Shown here piece after piece: positions 3,876-59,665 of a stretch of DNA of 64,000 nucleotides (within the stretch, counting starts at the first letter, position 1; every line of letters begins with the position of its first letter). Source of the DNA: Podarcis liolepis (Eukaryota); NCBI GenBank assembly GCA_965112155.1, contig OZ218100.1; one strand, written 5' to 3'. Both the position numbers and the translations under genes were made by a program. The notes beneath the pieces are model-generated. The model was not told the DNA's origin. It made no database searches and saw nothing but the letters and a program-made list of their open reading frames with translations.

Positions 3876-3947
3876 GTTGTTGTTGTTTAGTCGTGTCCGA
3901 CTCTTCGTGACCCCATGGACCAGAGCACGCCAGGCACTTCTGTCTTC
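3876..3947 (-). mobile_element. Bov-B (RTE) LINE extreme 3' end, 5'-truncated
   Basis: Reverse complement of ...ccatggggtcacgaagagtcggacacgactaaac(aac)n; 12-bp TSD atattaaatcat (3864-3875, 3948-3959). Confidence 0.88.
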
Positions 3948-4096
3948 ATATTAAATCATACTTGTGCCCATCTAGACATGCATAAGATGAGCAGGTTGTT
4001 CATAAATTATTATTATTGTTGTTGTTATTATTATTTAAACTTAGTAGTTGCTTGTCACCCAAACAGTCCCCAAGTGAATTACATTTTAAAAAAAAC

Positions 4097-4152
4097 GTTG
4101 TTGTTGTTTAGTCGTGTCCAACTCTTCGTGACCCCATGGACCAGAGCACGCC
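4097..4152 (-). mobile_element. Bov-B (RTE) LINE extreme 3' end, second copy
   Basis: Same 3' end and (GTT)n tail; short A-rich TSD aaaaaac. Confidence 0.85.
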
Positions 4153-4599
4153 AAAAAACACATAAATACATTATATCATAGAAAAGGTGGGAGAATCCTA
4201 TAACACATTCATATTCCATACAACATTTTGGAAAAAGGAAAAAACTAAAACCACTCACTTCCCATAACAGTGATGGAAAACATTGGCAACACCTTAACAA
4301 TAAACCAAAAAATACTCCCATCCACCAGCATAAAAAAATTAAAGCTCAACATGGACACCCCCCTCTGTAGTCTAAAAATCATTCATGTCAACATTGTGAT
4401 TTTTAAATCTACCCACTGTACCCAGAATTCTAGGGTCAAGGCCAGCTGCTATATGTCAGTGCAGAGTGGGTCCTCCAGGAATGGTCTTCATCAAGTTTCT
4501 TGATAATTGTCAATTGAGGCTCAGGTGGCCCCTGTGGCTAGGAGTGACTTTTATCAGCACTGACAGGTACGTTACCTGTGGCCATTCCTGAACAGGGAT

Positions 4600-8350: not shown

Positions 8351-9775
8351 ACCTGTTGAGCTCAAATGTTTGTGTTGCACACCGCTTTGTTTCAATAGGG
8401 AAGCAGTCTAGAGATCTAAAAGTGGGTGGAAGGATACACAAACGGCAATCCAGCATTGTGGAAAGTCACAGCGTCATCTCGTTGTGGAAACTTGAAATAC
8501 GCTCCAAAGCACATAAGCATAGGAAAGGGCATGTTGTAACAGTTATTCCAAAGGAAGAGGAGGCGAATCAGAGTGATGAGCTTGACATCTTTGACAGGCT
8601 TGGCTGCTTATACCGTCTGGCCAGAGTGTGGGGCTTTACTAAATCTGTGTTTTGCAAGTTGGAGAGGAATATATTCCGCTCCAAAAGGATGGAGGACAGA
8701 GTGATCCATGAATGTTATACATCAGTGGTGTTGCTTAGTGCAATTGTCTGGAGGAAGCCCTTGAGGCTGGCTACATGGTGTACCTGTCATGCATGAGTCA
8801 TCATAAATGTGTTCTAATATTATAATGTTGTATGCCCAGGCATGGAGAACCCTTTTAGAGCCAAAGGCCCCATTACTCCTCTGGAACACTGTCAGGGTTA
8901 CATTCCAGAACCACAAAGAATCAACAGAGAGAGACAGAATCGCACATGTTAACCCTTTACTCCACCCAGCCTTTCCACCCTGCTCAGCTGTCTCTGGAGC
9001 AGGCACTTCCAAATACCTCGAACTATCAATTGTACCACATTAGTTGCCAACACTGGAAGTTAATTCCTATTATGTGGTGCTTTATGAATATCTGTTCCAT
9101 CTTTTCTAGGTATTGTAGGAAAGCTCACTTCTATTTCATTGCTATAAGACCTGATCGGATTGTTATTGTTTCTTTAGATTTTTGCATTTCTGCTGCTTTT
9201 TGCCTTGTAGCATTGAATCCAGTTCTCATCCCCTTACTGCTTATATGTTTTAAGTTGTATAGAGGCTGCCACGTTATAGGCAGTGACACAGCAAGCATTA
9301 TATGGAGTAGGGCTCGGACAACAATGCAGATTTATGGTGATGAAGGTAATAGGTTTTTTATTTAGTTAGCATGTATTTTTTTTACCTTGCTCGTCAGCTG
9401 AAAAGCTTGCAAATCAATAAAAAGAAAACAAGATCATCCCTGGCCTTGGAGTTACGATTTAAAAGGCATGACACAAAAAGAACAAGGGGTTCAGAGGGAG
9501 GAAAAAGCAAACTGAGTCACTAGTTCTGAAGTTCTAAGGATGACTAATTTAGATGGAAACAGTTCAGGTAGTCTGATGGAACGACTATTGCTAGGTGATA
9601 GATGAGGGAGAAGAAGAACCAAAGGCAGCTGGTGACTCAGCAGAGCCGATGAAAAATCTCTGCTTCTCACCCCTCCCTCTTCTGCAGCCTGATGGAATGG
9701 CTGTTAGGGAGCAGGCATTACATATACAAGGTACTACGTTGTATTTGGTGTATTGTAAGCATTCCTGTGCACTAG

Positions 9776-10705
9776 AAGTTGGGGTTCACCCTATAAAGTC
9801 GATTGCCTGTAGGTTCAGGACAGAGAAGTACTTTTTCTGCATAGCACATGGTTAGACAAATGATGGAACTCCCTGGCACAAGATATGTTGATGAAGTGCA
9901 GCTTAGAGCAAGCAGTAGGCAAGGAGAATAGGCCTATCTATCTATCCATCCATAAAGGTAAAGGTACCCCTGCCCGTACGGGCCAGTCGTGTCCAACTCT
10001 AGGGTTGTGCGCTCATCTCACTTAAGAGGCTGGGAGCCAGCGCTGTCCGGAGACTCTTCCAGGTCACGTGGCCAGTGTGACGAAGCTGCTCTGGCGAGCC
10101 AGCACCAGCGCAGCACACGGAAACGCCGTTTACCTTCCCGCTATAAAGCGGTACCTATTTATCTACTTGCACTTAGGGGTGCTTTCGAACTGCTAGGTGG
10201 GCAGGAGCTGGGACCGAAAGACGGGAGCTCACCCCGCCGCAGGGATTCGAACCGCCGACCATACGATAGGCAAGTCCTAGGCACTGAGGTTTTACCCACA
10301 GCGCCACCCGTGTCCCAAGTTGGGGTTCACCCCATAAAGTTGATTGCCTGTAGGTTCAGGACAGAGAAGTACTTTTTCTACATAGCACATGGTTAGACAA
10401 ATGATGGAACTCCCTGGCACAAGATATGTTGATGTAGTGTAGCTTAGAGCAAGCAGTAGGCAAGGAGAATAGGCCTATCTATCTATCCATCCATAGCTGT
10501 TGCCTATTACAGCTAAGGGCGAAGTCTCTCATGTTCAGAGGCCGTGCATATCTGAGCACAGGGTATCCAGGACAAGCAGAGAATGACCATCCCTTTAATG
10601 CCCTGCTTACAACCCTGCAGAAGTATCTTCCTAGGCTATGTTGGAGACAGAATGCTGGACTATATCAGCCCTTGGTCTTACCCAGCAAGGCAGTTCTTGT
10701 GTTCC
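9776..10705 (+). mobile_element. Old CR1 LINE 3' fragment interrupted by a Sauria SINE
   Basis: ttcaggacagagaagtactttttc..atggaactccctggcacaagat..acagaatgctggact..cagcaaggcagttcttgtgttc; related fragments at about 33630-33965, 54425-54650 and 60495-60570. Confidence 0.7.
9955..10316 (-). mobile_element. Sauria SINE (variant subfamily), full length, flanked by 179-bp direct repeats
   Basis: Head gggacacgggtggcgctgtggg on - strand, B box, (ACCTTT)n tail; flanks 9776-9954 and 10317-10495 match with 5 substitutions. Confidence 0.93.
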
Positions 10706-10784
10706 CATCCCACGCAAAATGGAATTTGCAGAATGTAGTGTCCCTCTGAGAATATCAGCTTTCATTTTATTTGGGGGGGGGGGA

Positions 10785-11154
10785 GAGAGCAAAATTTTCA
10801 CTTCACACAGCTGCAGCATTTGATAAGGTATGAACACTGTCTGCTGAAGGCTTATGGCATGTCTAAAGCTATTAATATAGCCGAAAACAGTGCACAAGGA
10901 ATTCTTACAAAACAGTGAAAGAGGTAGTGTGCTTCAGGGAAAGTTTTCCGTTGAATGAGAACAATTATAGATATCATGGCCCTTCTATGAAAAACTTTCC
11001 CTGAGGCACACTGCCTCTTTCACTGTTTTTGCAAGTATTCCTTGTGCACTGTTTTCGGCTACATTAGTAGCTTTAGACATGCCATAAGCCTTCAGCAGAC
11101 AGTGTCCATACCTTATCAAATGCTACAGCTGTGTGAAGTGAAAAATTTGCTCTC
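10785..11154. repeat. Long inverted repeat: arms 10785-10947 and 10991-11154, 43-nt spacer
   Basis: Manual alignment gives 9 substitutions and 1 indel over about 163 bp; loosely extends to about 10760/11180. Mirror ORFs MCTVFGYI.. on both strands confirm it. Confidence 0.95.
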
Positions 11155-11200
11155 TTTTTTTCCCCCTTCCAAAAATGAAAACTTGTTTATTTTTGAAGAC

Positions 11201-11341
11201 CAGGACTTTTTCCCCCCGGCTGGCACTGGCTGGAACTCCGTTCCAGAACCTCTTAGGTGGGCACAATTGCCATTCTTAAGAGAACGAGGGAGGCGTTCAT
11301 GGTGAGTTCCTGCACCTCTTTTTTCCGGAAAAATAGCACTG
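11201..11341. mobile_element. Short non-autonomous DNA transposon (hAT-like MITE), degenerate
   Basis: Ends caggactttttt ... aaaaatagcactg resemble imperfect TIRs; no clear TSD. Confidence 0.5.
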
Positions 11342-13269
11342 ATGATGATGATAATTTATATCCTACCTTTCCCTTCCCCCTAACAATATAACATTCTAAT
11401 GGTAACTTTGTAAAATCAATTTGAAAAATGCAACGAAACAGCAATGTCAAGATTATCAAAACAAAAATGGACAGTGTATCATATTATAAATTAAGACACT
11501 GGAGTTGGCATAATACCATGAAGCTAATTAAAGGGGCCATCTTAAGATTCAGTTATTTTTACAGATCAACTGTCGAATAATGAGGAACATTTCAGTTTGG
11601 ATTAAAATTCTCACACCTGGGACTTTTATTCCCAAGACTTCTGCTTACAGTTGTTCTCTGGAGTCTATCCATGTCAACCAGACATATCCTCAAGTCATTA
11701 ATAAGCTGCATTCTAAATAGCATATGATATGAAATGCCCTTTATTTTTTCCCTGTGGTGCTACTTGGTTTCATTGGTGTTGGCATGGCGATATTATCACT
11801 TAACCCATATACAGGTCCTATCCTTCTTAGAGGATTGGAACTCATTTGTCACATAGAAGTACCGGTAGTTTAAAGCAGACATTGGAATAAAAATCTATGC
11901 TCCAAGATTTGGTATCGTGAACTTCCTTCAGCTTTCGTGCGAGAGCAATAAATACAAATTCTGTATTTGGCAAAGAGTTTTGAATGCTTGGGTAGCTTGC
12001 TTTTTTTTGAAGAGCAGAATACCGCTGGCCTTTGCTAATTTTTGTAATTTGTTTGCCTGACACTTTCCAGACAGAGGAAAGTGCCACCAAAATCATTTGG
12101 AGTCGCTCCTGCCCTGAAACAGGTCAGTCCTTGATGGTTGTGCAATACTTTATTGTGGCCCAAAATGTAAGATAATTGCTACAGCACTTTAATCCTCCAT
12201 TGTCACTCATTGCTAGCAGATTCCTGCTATGAAAGCTTTATTGGGGCTCCGTATCTGTGGCTTCCAGAGCATCCCAGCAGCTGGGGAATGTGGAACTATT
12301 TGCTAGGCATTCAAAACATTTCATGAAAGTGAAGGCCTTCTTGCTGGAAGTCTCATGTGATATGCAAGCTGCTGTTAAGATTTACTGTTCCAGCATCTCC
12401 TTTGCTAAGTGCAGATAACTGTGAAAGGCTTTTAGCACTCATGTGCAACAATCAATAATGGCAACCTGAACAGGGACCGCAAGTCTGCACGCACCACCTG
12501 CAGTGTCTCTGGGAGAGCTGGCTATTCCCCACTTCACTCCTGATCTACCTGGGCTGAGTAGCAAAGGCTTAAGGGGGATTCAAAATGTATTCAGCTAAAC
12601 ACATTTAGAAGGCTCCTCATGATCAGGACCCCTGATAACTCAGTGAGGGATCCTGCATGGAGCACACAGGAATATTGGGGTGGGGCTTGGATGCTCAGCC
12701 CCCAAACTCTTCTTCAAGTTGCCATTTGGTTTCAGACATCTGCGTCTCCACATACAATGCAAGGGATCCTAAGATCGCTGCCTGCTTTTAAGTGCAAGCC
12801 TCTATTAACATTAGCAAAACAGCATGACTGTTTGGGAAGCCAGTGTATAAGAGTGTGTAATGTTTGCTAGCTATTGAAAGCGAAAGCTTATTCATTCCTT
12901 TGACTGGCAGTGACTGTGAAATAAAGTTGAAGTGAGCTTTGTTTATATATGACACGTTGTAGCCAAGTGCAAGTCAGACCCTTTGCTTCTGTTTTTCCTG
13001 TTCTACGCAGCCAAAAAGCCAACACACACCCCCGCCATTAATTTGCCATATTTTTTAAAAAATCATTTTTTCTCTGGGTGCAATTGTATTTGGGTAATGA
13101 GAAGTGAGAGAAACTCTGTTTTGGGAGATATGTCTTGTGAAAGAGTAATGCTAGAACTGAGATTATCCCAGACACTCTTGGGTGACTGGGACTGTGTGTT
13201 CTTGGTCCAGTTCAGCAGGAGCTTTCAGGATCAGGAAACGGAGATAGTGATTGTGGCACAGATGGGGTA

Positions 13270-24780: not shown

Positions 24781-24864
24781 CTTGCCCTTGCACTCATGCA
24801 GTTGTCTGTTATGAGCATGCCACACATGCTCATGACAGACAACTGCATGGAGAGAAAGGGCAGG
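24781..24864. repeat. Short near-perfect hairpin (25-bp core stem, 5-nt loop)
   Basis: catgcagttgtctgttatgagcatg (24795-24819) pairs with catgctcatgacagacaactgcatg (24825-24849); outer tgccctt/aagggca extension. Confidence 0.92.
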
Positions 24865-37580: not shown

Positions 37581-37916
37581 GTTGTGGTTCTTTAGTTGTT
37601 TAGTCATGTCCAACTCTTCATGACCCCATGGACCAGAGCACGCCAGGCACTCCTGGCTTCCACTGCCTCCCACAGTTTGGTCAAACTCATGCTGGTAGCT
37701 TCAAGAACACTATCCAACCATATTGTACTCTGTCATCCCCTTCTCCTTGTGCCCTCAATCTTTCCCAACATCAGGGTCTTTTCCAGGGAGTCTTCTCTTC
37801 TCATGATGTGGCCAAAGTATTAGAGCCTCAGCTTCAGGATCTGTCCTTCCAATGAGCACTCAGGGCTGGTCTTCTTGCAGATAGGTTTGATCTTCTTGCA
37901 GTACAGGGGACTCTCA
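37581..37916 (-). mobile_element. Bov-B (RTE) LINE 3' fragment
   Basis: Reverse complement of the 52820-53180 copy; - strand encodes SPECSLEGQILKLRL. Confidence 0.92.
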
Positions 37917-52819: not shown

Positions 52820-53180
52820 CTTTTGAATTATGGTGTTGGAGGAGACTCTTGAGAGTCCCATGGACTGCAAGAAGACCAAACCTATCCATTCTTAAGGAAA
52901 TCAGCCCTGAGTGCTCACTGGAAGGACAGATCGTGAAGCTGAGGCTACAATAATTTGGCCACCTCATGAGAAGAGAAGACTCTCTGGAAAAGACCCTGAT
53001 GTTGGGAAAGATTGAGGGCACAAGGAGAAGGGGACAACAGAGGACTAGATGGTTGGACAGTGTTCTCGAAGCTACTAACATGAGTTTGACCAGACTGCGG
53101 GAGGCAGTGGAAGACAGGAGTGCCTGGCATGCTGTGGTCAATGGGGTGACGAAAAGTCAGACACGACTAAACAACAACAA
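52820..53180 (+). mobile_element. Bov-B (RTE) LINE 3' fragment
   Basis: FELWCWRRLLRVPWTARR..ECSLEGQ..*FGHLMRREDSLEKTLMLGKIEG.RRRG.QRTRWLD; (AAC)n tail. Confidence 0.95.
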
Positions 53181-53356
53181 TGTCCCAATTGCCACGAATC
53201 ATCTCAAATTAACCCAAGAATGTGACTCAGTACTTTGGAGGTGGTAGAATGTGCAAACTTCTGACTTTTCAAATAGGCTAGAATTAGGTGTTGGTGGATT
53301 ACAAATCCCATTATCCTAACTATGGGCAGGTTGGCTGGGGCTGATGGGGTTTGGGA

Positions 53357-56465: not shown

Positions 56466-57833
56466 TTCCTTGTGGCTTTCCAGCATAGCTGAAGATGACA
56501 TGAGAAGCTCAGCCGCAACATAAGGAGATTATAGCATTACAAGAGAAGCAAGTCATAAACTCCTTGGAGCTGTTCCAGGAACAAAACTAGCTAATTTGGG
56601 ATCCCCAAATCCAATCAAAAATTCAGAAGGGAGAAAGTTCATAAGCTTCCTTGTTTATGAATGAGGAACACACAGGGATAGCAAACGTGTGTTTTAGTTC
56701 ACAATCTTGCTGCATTGATTTGGGTGAAATGCACAGTTCCCTTTTATAGTGATGTGATAGATGAATTCTGCATGAAGCCACAATAGCCCAACAGCTTCGT
56801 GATGGAGGGCTGCATGAAAGAATGACCTAGAGGCTCCCTCCAGGCGTCTTTTTTAATGTGCATTCATGATCATTTGCACTCATGATGGTATCAGGGTAGC
56901 TACACATGGCCCCGTATTCAACAGTGTTTTGCACCTGTGGTGGACATGCGGCCATTTCCAGTCAGAGTGTGTGCCCCATGCCGTCCTGTTGAAATCCTGT
57001 ATGCTTTTTTATGCCACAGACGTTCCATGGAGAGAGGAGTCATCTGCCCTGCTTTTGTTGAATTAAGATACCTGAGCACCCCTCCAGACAGCAATAACGC
57101 AGTAATATTGGCGAAGTGTTGTGGAACAAGTAATAAAGCAGAATGGTGTGTGGATAGTCCAGTATAAATACACTACTAATGCACTATTATTGCATCAGTG
57201 ACATGTTGCAGAATGCACCTGCAAAGAAATGCCCAGGGCAGGATTCAACTAATGAGTCACATCAGTGCAAGCCTGTACAAAATGCTTTATCTCCTTCTCC
57301 CCCCCCCCCATGCCCCCAAAATTGGTTTGGGGTGTCAGGATAACCCCCAGAACCCCCAGAAGAGTGCACAGGTAGAGGAGAAGGGGGATTGTTCTGTCTG
57401 ACAAGCCAAAATGCCTTACACTGATGCAACAATCAGAAAAGCATGGCACTGAATTCTTCCCCTGGAGGCAGCCCTTAAGAACTCAGACTTAAGAAAACCC
57501 AGCACAATTCGTTGGTTGGTGAAGCAAAACACCCTCTTCTTGCTAGAGAACTGTGTCAACTTCCATGTAAGCCTGAGCCTTGAAGAAGCAAAAGTTTCGT
57601 CCTATCGTTTTTCATAATATCCCCCAATGGAAAGCCCCTAAGATCAAAATCCATTAAGTTCTGGTCTTTTCTTTTAAGGAAACTTGATAGCCACTCATTG
57701 AATCTGTCCCTGTTTGATAATATGGGTGTACCCTTTTGGCTCATCGCAACCATTACATAAAAGTCGACCTTTCTTGTGTGCAGGCCACTGCCTTAAAAAT
57801 CCTTCAGTGTGGCAGCAGCATATGCTGAAATGT

Positions 57834-57968
57834 TAACATTTAAGGACTCCTTATCTGTGCATTGCCCAATTGTGTGCGCACAATGCCACTGTTCCCAGGG
57901 AATGAGCTCTGGTGTGCATATGTCACACACAATTGGGCAACGCACAGATAAGAAATCCTTAAATGTTA
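57834..57968. repeat. Inverted repeat with 43-bp arms (probable small MITE)
   Basis: taacatttaaggactccttatctgtgcattgcccaattgtgtg pairs with cacacaattgggcaacgcacagataagaaatccttaaatgtta (3 mismatches). Confidence 0.9.
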
Positions 57969-59665
57969 CTCTTCCACATATAGTTCTGCCGTGGGAAAGA
58001 GTTTTTCAGTGTCCTGCACACAAAGATCCCATTCATCCCCCACCCCCATCTTTTAACACATGGTTTGTAGAGTTTCCCAACATAGGTACCACTAGGACTC
58101 TTAACTCATCATTGGGGCACTACTAACTTTGAATGGGAAGGGCTGGTTTTGCTAGGAGTCTGCTTACAATATTGTTTAGGAAACGTACCGTGATGGTTTG
58201 TGTACTATCCTTGACGTAGCTTTGCTTCATTTCAGTCTGGCTTTGAAGTGCTTCAAGGTTTTCTCTTGCTATATGATTGCTAACCACTGAGGAAACAAAA
58301 CCTTGGCTCCAGAACAGTTACTGCTCTGGCAGTCACTTTTATCCTGGGACTGAGTGACTTATGTTTGTGTTTTCGTAGGAGGATTCCTCTGCTGGGCAAG
58401 TTGAGTCTTATTGATGTGAAGCCCAAATTCCCTTGGAGACTCTCCTTTGAGAATTTTTTTTTTTTTACATCAGTCAAAGCAAAGGGCTGCTTAAATAACA
58501 AAACAAAAAAAAGCAAAAGGGGAATCCAACTGTGCTCTCTGCCAGCATAGAACAAAAGAGCCAAAGTACAGTGCTCCTGGCAGTCCTCTTGGAAACACAC
58601 ATGTTGGTCTAGGCAGATGCCTTCAGAAACATTTGACAGCAATTTGGCAAGGCTGCAACTTTTGACTAAACCTGGACTTGGTAGAGGGAAAGGAGAGGTT
58701 GCTGACAAATTGCCAGTTTGGTTCTGTAAAAGAACCTCATTGCTAGGCTGATCCCCCCTGGTCCTGCCATTGCTACTCCTAAATGTTTACGTGCACATTT
58801 CAGGTGGTCCCATGTACACAAGGACTGGGAGACTGCAAGGGCCTGTGGAAGGTTGTGGCACATGCATAGATAATGCCCTTTGATTCAAGATTATTTGCTC
58901 CTTGAGTCTAAACAGCTTGGGTTCTGAATTAAGATCACTTAAGAAAGCTCACAAAAGGAAAAAATAGCCTGCCCTCTTCTGCCTCCTTTGCTCCAAACAG
59001 CCCCTGCTGAATAATGTGGGCTGATGGAGAAGGATAGAGTTGCCCAGAATTGGGCAAATTTGGGGTGATTGTCCTCTTCTTTGCCAAGAGCACTCCAAAT
59101 TGTTGTATGGAGTCTTGTGACTCCAGGGAGACGCTTTTCCAGGGGCACAGGTGGTTGTGGCAGGAGGAGAGGGGATGGAAAACTTTCCTTCTGTAAACTT
59201 TGCTAACTTGGTACCTGACCCTACGTAGTTGGTTGGTTTTTTAAAAAAACTTTGAATAACTGTGGGACTGACTTCCAAGTAAGTATTAATAGGATTGAAC
59301 TATGCATGTTGCTTCAGAGATTAAATTAAAACCAGGGAAGCCTGTGGAGAGTTCTTCTCTGTCCTCTGCAATGTGGCCAAAAAAAGGAGATAAAATTGAG
59401 TTTCTTCCCCTCTTCCCCTCTCTTTCTCACTCACACTGCAACAAGCTAGGGAGCAAATGCTATGCAGATGCTGAAAGAGCAACATCCATAGGAAGAATGC
59501 ATGGTTTTGATTGGCTTAGGCTGGGCTGTAATAGGCCTGAAAATGTATAAATATGGTTGTGAGTGACAGGAGAAAGACTGAACTGTGGCTCTGGATGGTT
59601 TGTGGGGGACAGAATCATGGCAGGGCTCCGTTCCACTTTGTCCATAAGAGGAGACTCCCCTGAAG

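Follow-up and report, generated by a model that had tools for sequence, protein, structure and literature searches.

A probable 179-bp target site duplication around a Sauria SINE in Podarcis liolepis, a likely extreme of a rare tail of long duplications

The DNA analyzed here (the window) is a stretch of 64,000 nucleotides from Podarcis liolepis. Between positions 9776 and 10495, a minus-strand SINE of 362 nt is enclosed by two direct repeats of 179 nt each (9776-9954 and 10317-10495), which are 97.2% identical and differ by five substitutions and no indels (copy 1/copy 2: 9792 T/C, 9800 C/T, 9839 G/A, 9894 A/T, and 9899 C/T). As the preliminary description of this DNA had reported and our alignment confirmed, the repeats abut the SINE, with a gap of 0 at both junctions, where repeat and SINE meet base to base. 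Similarity is lost abruptly at the outer ends of both repeats. The A at 9954 can also be read as the final letter of the SINE tail, so that the length of the duplication is 178 to 179 bp. The features of this index locus are as follows.

9776..9954, plus strand: copy 1 of the target site duplication (TSD), on the 3' or tail side of the SINE; 179 bp of host DNA, unique in this genome except for copy 2
9955..10316, minus strand: full-length putative Sauria SINE of the 362-nt subfamily, with its head at 10316 and its tail at 9955
9965-9955, minus strand: (ACCTTT)n tail of about two units, ACCTTTACCTT, recognized in the sequence and typed according to PMC13295347
9985..10000, minus strand: 16-nt 3' motif that agrees, by sequence comparison, in 15 of 16 letters with Bov-B-like LINE ends bearing (CAA)n tails in this genome
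10243..10306, minus strand: tRNA-like head, with stretches read by eye as A-box-like (10306-10296) and B-box-like (10253-10243)
10317..10495, plus strand: copy 2 of the TSD, on the 5' or head side of the SINE; 179 bp, fused to the first G of the SINE without added letters or microhomology
10494..10508, minus strand: first-nick signature, with AATA at -13 to -10, G at -9, C at -1, and TA as the first two letters of the TSD

A search of this genome with 9600-9954 as the query, which skips very common words, placed the 179-mer at just these two positions, with one further match of 77 nt at 77% identity, so that the repeated sequence belongs to the host rather than to an element. An LTR element, or an insertion mimicking a solo LTR, was rejected, as the 179-mer is locus-specific host DNA and the terminal repeats do not recur at other loci. 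Around the locus, positions 9600-9705 hold a fragment of an old interspersed repeat, matched about 36 times in this genome at 72 to 93%, and 10784-11155 is a MITE-like fold-back of 372 nt, with 129-nt arms that are 95% complementary, inner arms of 47 nt, and a 27-nt loop. An Rfam scan of 9000-11500 returned only subthreshold miRNA-hairpin matches, at the fold-back, and one weak snoRNA match. Elsewhere in the window lie further imperfect palindromes at 57774-58023 (72%) and 24783-24862 (84%), and an open frame of 618 codons without a Pfam match at 2-1855 on the plus strand.

We classify the index element as a Sauria SINE from features of its sequence, namely, the tRNA-like head, the (ACCTTT)n tail, the 3' motif shared with a LINE, and a high copy number. 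The (ACCTTT)n tail is used as a criterion for Sauria SINEs in PMC13295347, which also describes the pairing of Bov-B and Sauria. The Rfam scan gave no tRNA match to the head at an E value of 0.5 or below. In this genome there are 3,462 exact matches to the 27-nt 3' motif of the index subfamily and 22,814 for the major subfamily. Extrapolation from 102 incidental matches in 1.23 Mb puts the total near 1e5 copies, a rough figure that is biased upward. Clustering of 371 full-length copies placed 171 of them, the index among these, in a 362-nt subfamily, 95 in its 356-nt sister, and 55 in the 350-nt major subfamily, which is 18% away. The index SINE differs from the majority of its cluster at 8 of 362 positions, 7 of them at CpG sites. 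Its identity to the other Sauria copies in the window is only 75 to 79%, which bears out the earlier impression of a variant subfamily, and the four other window copies do have short TSDs, of 12, 13, 13, and 10 nt, as had been described.

The same 16-nt motif (15 of 16 letters) is carried by 50 distinct (CAA)n-tailed ends in the sampled DNA, and at one such locus (L152) a reverse transcriptase frame (RVT_1, E value of 2e-37) stops about 120 nt before the motif-bearing end. The preliminary description had attributed a shared 3' end to Sauria and Bov-B, and a 3' motif is indeed common to the SINE and to a reverse transcriptase-coding LINE of this genome. We call this presumed partner Bov-B-like, a name that rests on its tail type and on the motif. 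The window also contains the 3' ends of four Bov-B-like elements, all truncated at the 5' side and tailed with (CAA)n, at 3876-3947, 4095-4153, 37595-37916, and 52850-53183, two of them about 220 nt apart.

To describe the site of first-strand cleavage, we took 241 clean TSDs of 10 to 17 bp and built a matrix from the 218 that could be anchored on TA. These 218 sites are 94 to 98% A/T at -12 to -10 with a purine at -9, in agreement with the Tn-TA signature of the literature. At its outer end, the index duplication scores 8.4 bits at offset 0 (the best of seven offsets and so slightly flattered), a score reached by a fraction of 0.0002 of 20,000 random positions. Because the duplication begins at a site with this signature, its outer end was likely set by the element's own endonuclease. 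At the opposite, far end, no mirrored endonuclease signature rose above background (P = 0.13, compared with 0.11 to 0.97 for the other long cases described below). The ages of duplication and insertion are compatible, with four non-CpG differences between the copies of the 179-mer and one or two in the SINE, in a comparison of low power (binomial P of 0.38 to 0.69).

We then looked for the locus in Logan contigs from seven runs (X1, X3, X5, X15, X16, X17, and X18) covering six related organisms. The left flank was present, in whole or in part, in 20 of 24 runs among those listed. The SINE head was joined to the start of the 179-mer in contigs of X1, X3, and X17 (organisms A, C, and G) and of X16 and X18 (organisms F and H), from four studies, in each case with just 5 to 23 letters on the SINE side, which is below our 31-letter rule for bridging. 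In X18 the loose letters ahead of 9776 are the first 22 nt of the SINE. A separate entry from the left flank into the same 179-mer was also found in X3, X16, and X18, and two such entries, from the left flank and from the SINE head, are what two copies are expected to give. The tail-side junction at 9954/9955 was bridged by none of the contigs listed for the seven runs, and no head junction was seen in X5 (organism E), which has a coverage hole at 9896-9923.

One contig of X15, of 1,125 nt, joins the left flank, a single copy of the 179-mer with copy-1 letters, and the right flank without the SINE (window 9560-9954 and 10317-10780). This contig is likely a simplification of the assembler graph, since X16, from the same sample (S14), contains the head junction and X17, which likewise holds that junction, continues through 10495 without a break. 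It could also be a real empty, reverted, or solo-TSD allele, and contig depths for this sample do not discriminate heterozygosity for an empty allele. Among the six organisms we found no proven case of an orthologous pre-insertion site. At the five differing sites, the relatives' contigs mostly show the copy-1 letter, so that most changes may belong to copy 2, although these contigs are collapsed and the polarity is unsure; the CpG change at 10341 is apparently common to several organisms, and the A at 10380 is also found in X3.

The index insertion predates the split of several related species. Given the junction between the SINE head and the 179-mer in contigs of five organisms, the 179-bp repeat is likely an old and real TSD made at insertion, not a misassembly. 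The preliminary description had likewise argued for a real duplication rather than an assembly artifact, and both the relatives' junctions and the nick signature sustain that argument.

To place this length among those of other insertions, we surveyed 2.0 Mb of the genome, a non-random sample mostly centered on SINE 3' motifs and mostly from three contigs (C1 to C3). Of 570 copies found, 24 without a 3' end and 29 with less than 400 nt of flank were removed, leaving 517 copies including the index. Flanks measured 400 to 1,200 nt (at least 1,000 nt for 425 of the 517), and duplications longer than the flank would escape detection. Planted duplications of 60 to 900 bp, each carrying an indel and about 7% substitutions, were found again in 40 of 40 trials, and in 150 of 150 trials mismatched pairs of flanks yielded no repeat longer than 9 nt.

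A TSD was called in 378 of the 516 other copies, with a mode of 12 to 14 bp. Seven of the 516, about one in seventy (1.4%; 95% confidence interval of 0.55 to 2.8%), had an end-anchored TSD of at least 30 bp: L132 (31 bp), L376 (35), L151 (45), L249 (47), L353 (46 to 49), L396 (54 to 57), and L194 (100 to 107), the last being the one other copy (∼0.2%) at or above 100 bp. The first nick of these cases scored 7.2 to 9.4 bits in six of the seven and only 1.0 bit in L132. The preliminary description had looked to a secondary peak near 150 to 200 bp across Sauria and Bov-B copies; the lengths instead formed a decaying tail from 31 to 107 bp, and no other SINE copy fell at 150 to 200 bp (0 of 516; one-sided 95% bound of 0.58%). 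Among the Bov-B-like LINE ends, for which element extents are lower bounds, none of the 38 (of 50) with sufficient flank had a TSD of at least 25 bp bar one microsatellite.

It had also been suggested that the long duplication goes with the variant subfamily. This did not hold: the 29 nearest other copies fetched, 96 to 97% identical to the index SINE, all have TSDs of 8 to 15 bp, and long TSDs, which occur in several subfamilies, were found in 3 of 348 A-type copies and 4 of 168 others (Fisher P = 0.22). The GGAC of the SINE head lies beside the far end in two of the seven long cases versus 7 of 241 short ones, and is absent from that position at the index locus; some long TSDs may stem from the cDNA end having annealed farther downstream. 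Helical phasing of the lengths was not significant after correction (best Rayleigh P of ∼0.044 over seven periods, with eight lengths set by hand).

A number of candidates were dropped from the long class: L046, L107, L287, and L213 are simple repeats; L320, L293, L061, L383, and L313 reflect adjacent SINE tails or head-to-tail copies; L328 has a local repeat 18 nt off the end and a 12-nt TSD of its own; L088, L298, and L119 have other repeats 200 to 380 nt from the 3' end; and a third, older copy at L194 was left out of the count. A generic scan for direct repeats in sampled loci of at least 2.5 kb gave 50 candidates, 12 of them low copy; none added a long TSD at a SINE.

Several of the sampled loci have unusual arrangements. 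The long TSD of L194 lies inside an older local duplication. At L132 (2994-3483), the SINE and 76 extra letters before the 3' copy, including a second SINE 3' fragment, lie inside one duplication of 31 to 36 nt. Head-to-tail pairs of Sauria SINEs occur at L320 (3302-4036) and also at L293, L061, and L383, and at L320 a 13-nt repeat lies between the two full copies and recurs on either side of the pair. At L298 (536-4637), a tandem duplication of about 3 kb (93 to 97% identity) holds a Sauria SINE in one unit only, with a normal 11-nt TSD.

We consider it probable, at roughly 0.8, that the 179-bp repeat is a true TSD for which the Bov-B enzyme made its first cut at a usual site and the second strand was broken 179 bases away, instead of 12 to 14, as the extreme of a decaying tail. 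On this reading, the first nick would have fallen where the duplication starts, at a site that fits the family's signature, and, as in established target-primed reverse transcription, would have primed reverse transcription of the SINE RNA, starting at the (ACCTTT)n tail. The usual second cut at a fixed distance, as in the "specific-cleavage" model of PMC4245944, would then have failed, and a distant, sequence-independent nick from a repair or replication intermediate may have been used in its place. A distal, unrelated nick has been proposed for L1, for which TSDs above 100 bp were found in up to 10% of events in HeLa cells and in most events in NER-deficient cells (PMC5223499). The 179 bp between the nicks would have been unwound or displaced, the full-length cDNA joined straight to the far end, and both gaps filled. 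Such a course would recur in the ∼1.4% of copies with long TSDs, across subfamilies, with the index locus at the extreme of their decaying tail.

The preliminary description had instead placed the second cleavage about one nucleosome repeat away and suggested a possible long-stagger mode. A distinct mode of this kind, with the second cut one nucleosome repeat or Okazaki fragment away and a minor peak near 165 to 200 bp, would agree with the length of 179 bp. The index is also rarer than a fit to the seven other long TSDs predicts (2e-5 per copy from an exponential tail and 4e-4 from a power law, both with n = 7), so that a minor second mode could still exist, and C. elegans RTE-1, reportedly described by Youngman et al. 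in 1996 with TSDs of about 200 bp, would favor it. Against it stand the empty interval at 150 to 200 bp in the unselected SINE sample and the lack of long cases among the Bov-B-like ends. Six of the seven long TSDs moreover fall at 30 to 60 bp, and a flat spread over 30 to 200 bp is rejected (P = 2e-4), and the index, having been chosen for its length, cannot count toward a mode. We regard this explanation as unlikely. In a related form, which we would likewise call unlikely, chromatin would set a second way of finishing Bov-B insertions, in a hidden class of less than 0.6% whose nick lies one nucleosome or Okazaki fragment away, besides the 30- to 110-bp tail (∼1.4%, or about 1,800 loci). If this were true, Sauria SINEs would be a fossil record of the sources of second-strand nicks in vivo, and copies with long repeats could be cleanly excised by recombination between the repeats.

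The far end of the duplication bears on whether the Bov-B endonuclease could have produced it by nicking the two strands independently, at Tn-TA sites 179 bp from each other. A partial mirrored motif (ATT, 9 nt, TA) does lie 3 nt outside that end, but it reaches only 2.5 bits as the best of nine offsets, as do 13% of random places, and none of the eight long cases falls below a P of 0.1 for such a motif, making this origin very unlikely. A duplication independent of the insertion, through a blunt SINE landing at an older tandem junction or a later rearrangement that copied the flank, has some precedent in the SINEs that lie within older local duplications at L298 and L194. Those SINEs, however, keep a TSD of their own, and the repeat ends lie off the SINE ends, whereas at the index locus repeat and SINE ends match exactly, no second, short TSD is present, the nick signature stands at the outer end, and the duplication and the insertion are compatible in age; we therefore find this origin highly improbable. 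An assembly that merged an empty and a filled haplotype into a false duplication is the least credible account. The X15 and X16 contigs carry the copy-1 letters at 9839, 9894, and 9899 into the right flank, X15 without the SINE, as merging might lead one to expect, but merging cannot make the junction between the SINE head and the start of the 179-mer that was found in five organisms, and the junction contig of X16 differs from copy 1 at two letters, like copy 2. The index insertion is thus likely the far extreme of an uncommon by-product that other mobile elements also leave, and not a separate nucleosome-sized mode.

Second-strand cleavage is a poorly understood step of non-LTR retrotransposition, and long TSDs have so far come mostly from L1 in cultured or repair-deficient cells. 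The index and the seven smaller cases indicate that an RTE-dependent SINE leaves long TSDs in the vertebrate germline after a normal first nick (strong in six of the smaller cases and weak in L132). With the roughly estimated 1e5 copies, the full distribution of TSD lengths is measurable and could test distal-nick, replication, and nucleosome models. TSD finders limited to about 50 bp overlook such insertions, which copy small pieces of host DNA and whose long repeats could permit clean loss of the SINE, a matter of relevance where SINEs are used as phylogenetic markers.

Among known systems, C. elegans RTE-1 belongs to the RTE clade, like the presumed Sauria partner, and long flanking direct repeats are said to have been reported for it by Youngman et al. 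in 1996; it is an autonomous LINE, unlike the index element. Table 1 of PMC6007223 gives TSDs of 10 to 49 bp for 30 of 53 RTE-1 copies. As far as their accessible text goes, PMC1852546, 10.1101/2023.08.08.552548, PMC3024322, and PMC11702581 contain nothing on RTE-1 or on long TSD lengths in the germline. With Sauria and Bov-B insertions as described in PMC13295347 and PMC6007223, the index shares the tRNA-like head, the (ACCTTT)n tail, the 3' motif found in the (CAA)n-tailed LINE, and a TSD whose first letter is the T of a TA lying about 10 nt past an A/T tract. In contrast to the TSDs of 7 to 15 bp given for RTE-clade elements (PMC6007223), its TSD measures 179 bp. The TSD scans described in PMC13295347 and PMC6007223 took only perfect repeats of 10 to 49 bp, and a case of the index type would therefore be invisible to both. 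Our literature search, the coverage of which left subscription papers largely outside, found no report of long TSDs for Sauria SINEs or Bov-B, and the 30- to 110-bp tail appears to be undescribed for the Sauria family in the literature searched.

The closest likeness is to L1 insertions with large TSDs (PMC5223499 and PMC4245944), in which a normal first nick is followed by a distant second one and TSDs above 100 bp form a minority of highly variable length. PMC5223499 cites Gilbert 2002/2005 and Symer 2002 on such insertions and describes long L1 TSDs as able to recombine like LTRs, while PMC1291365 states that L1 TSDs reach several hundred nucleotides. The L1 events of PMC5223499 arose de novo in cultured cells, whereas the index is a germline insertion of a SINE partnered with an RTE element and common to several species, and the frequencies differ as well, with L1 TSDs above 100 bp in up to 10% of the HeLa events compared to ∼0.2% at or above 100 bp for Sauria here. 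Rare, very long TSDs retained in the germline are also seen for HERV-K (HML-2), with lengths of 250 bp and 111 bp (PMC5488345), although these arise by integrase-mediated retroviral integration and not by target-primed reverse transcription. The index locus is a single rare outlier of a known type and not a new mechanism; what is new is modest, namely, that the long TSDs of an RTE-dependent SINE form a tail in the germline that can be measured.
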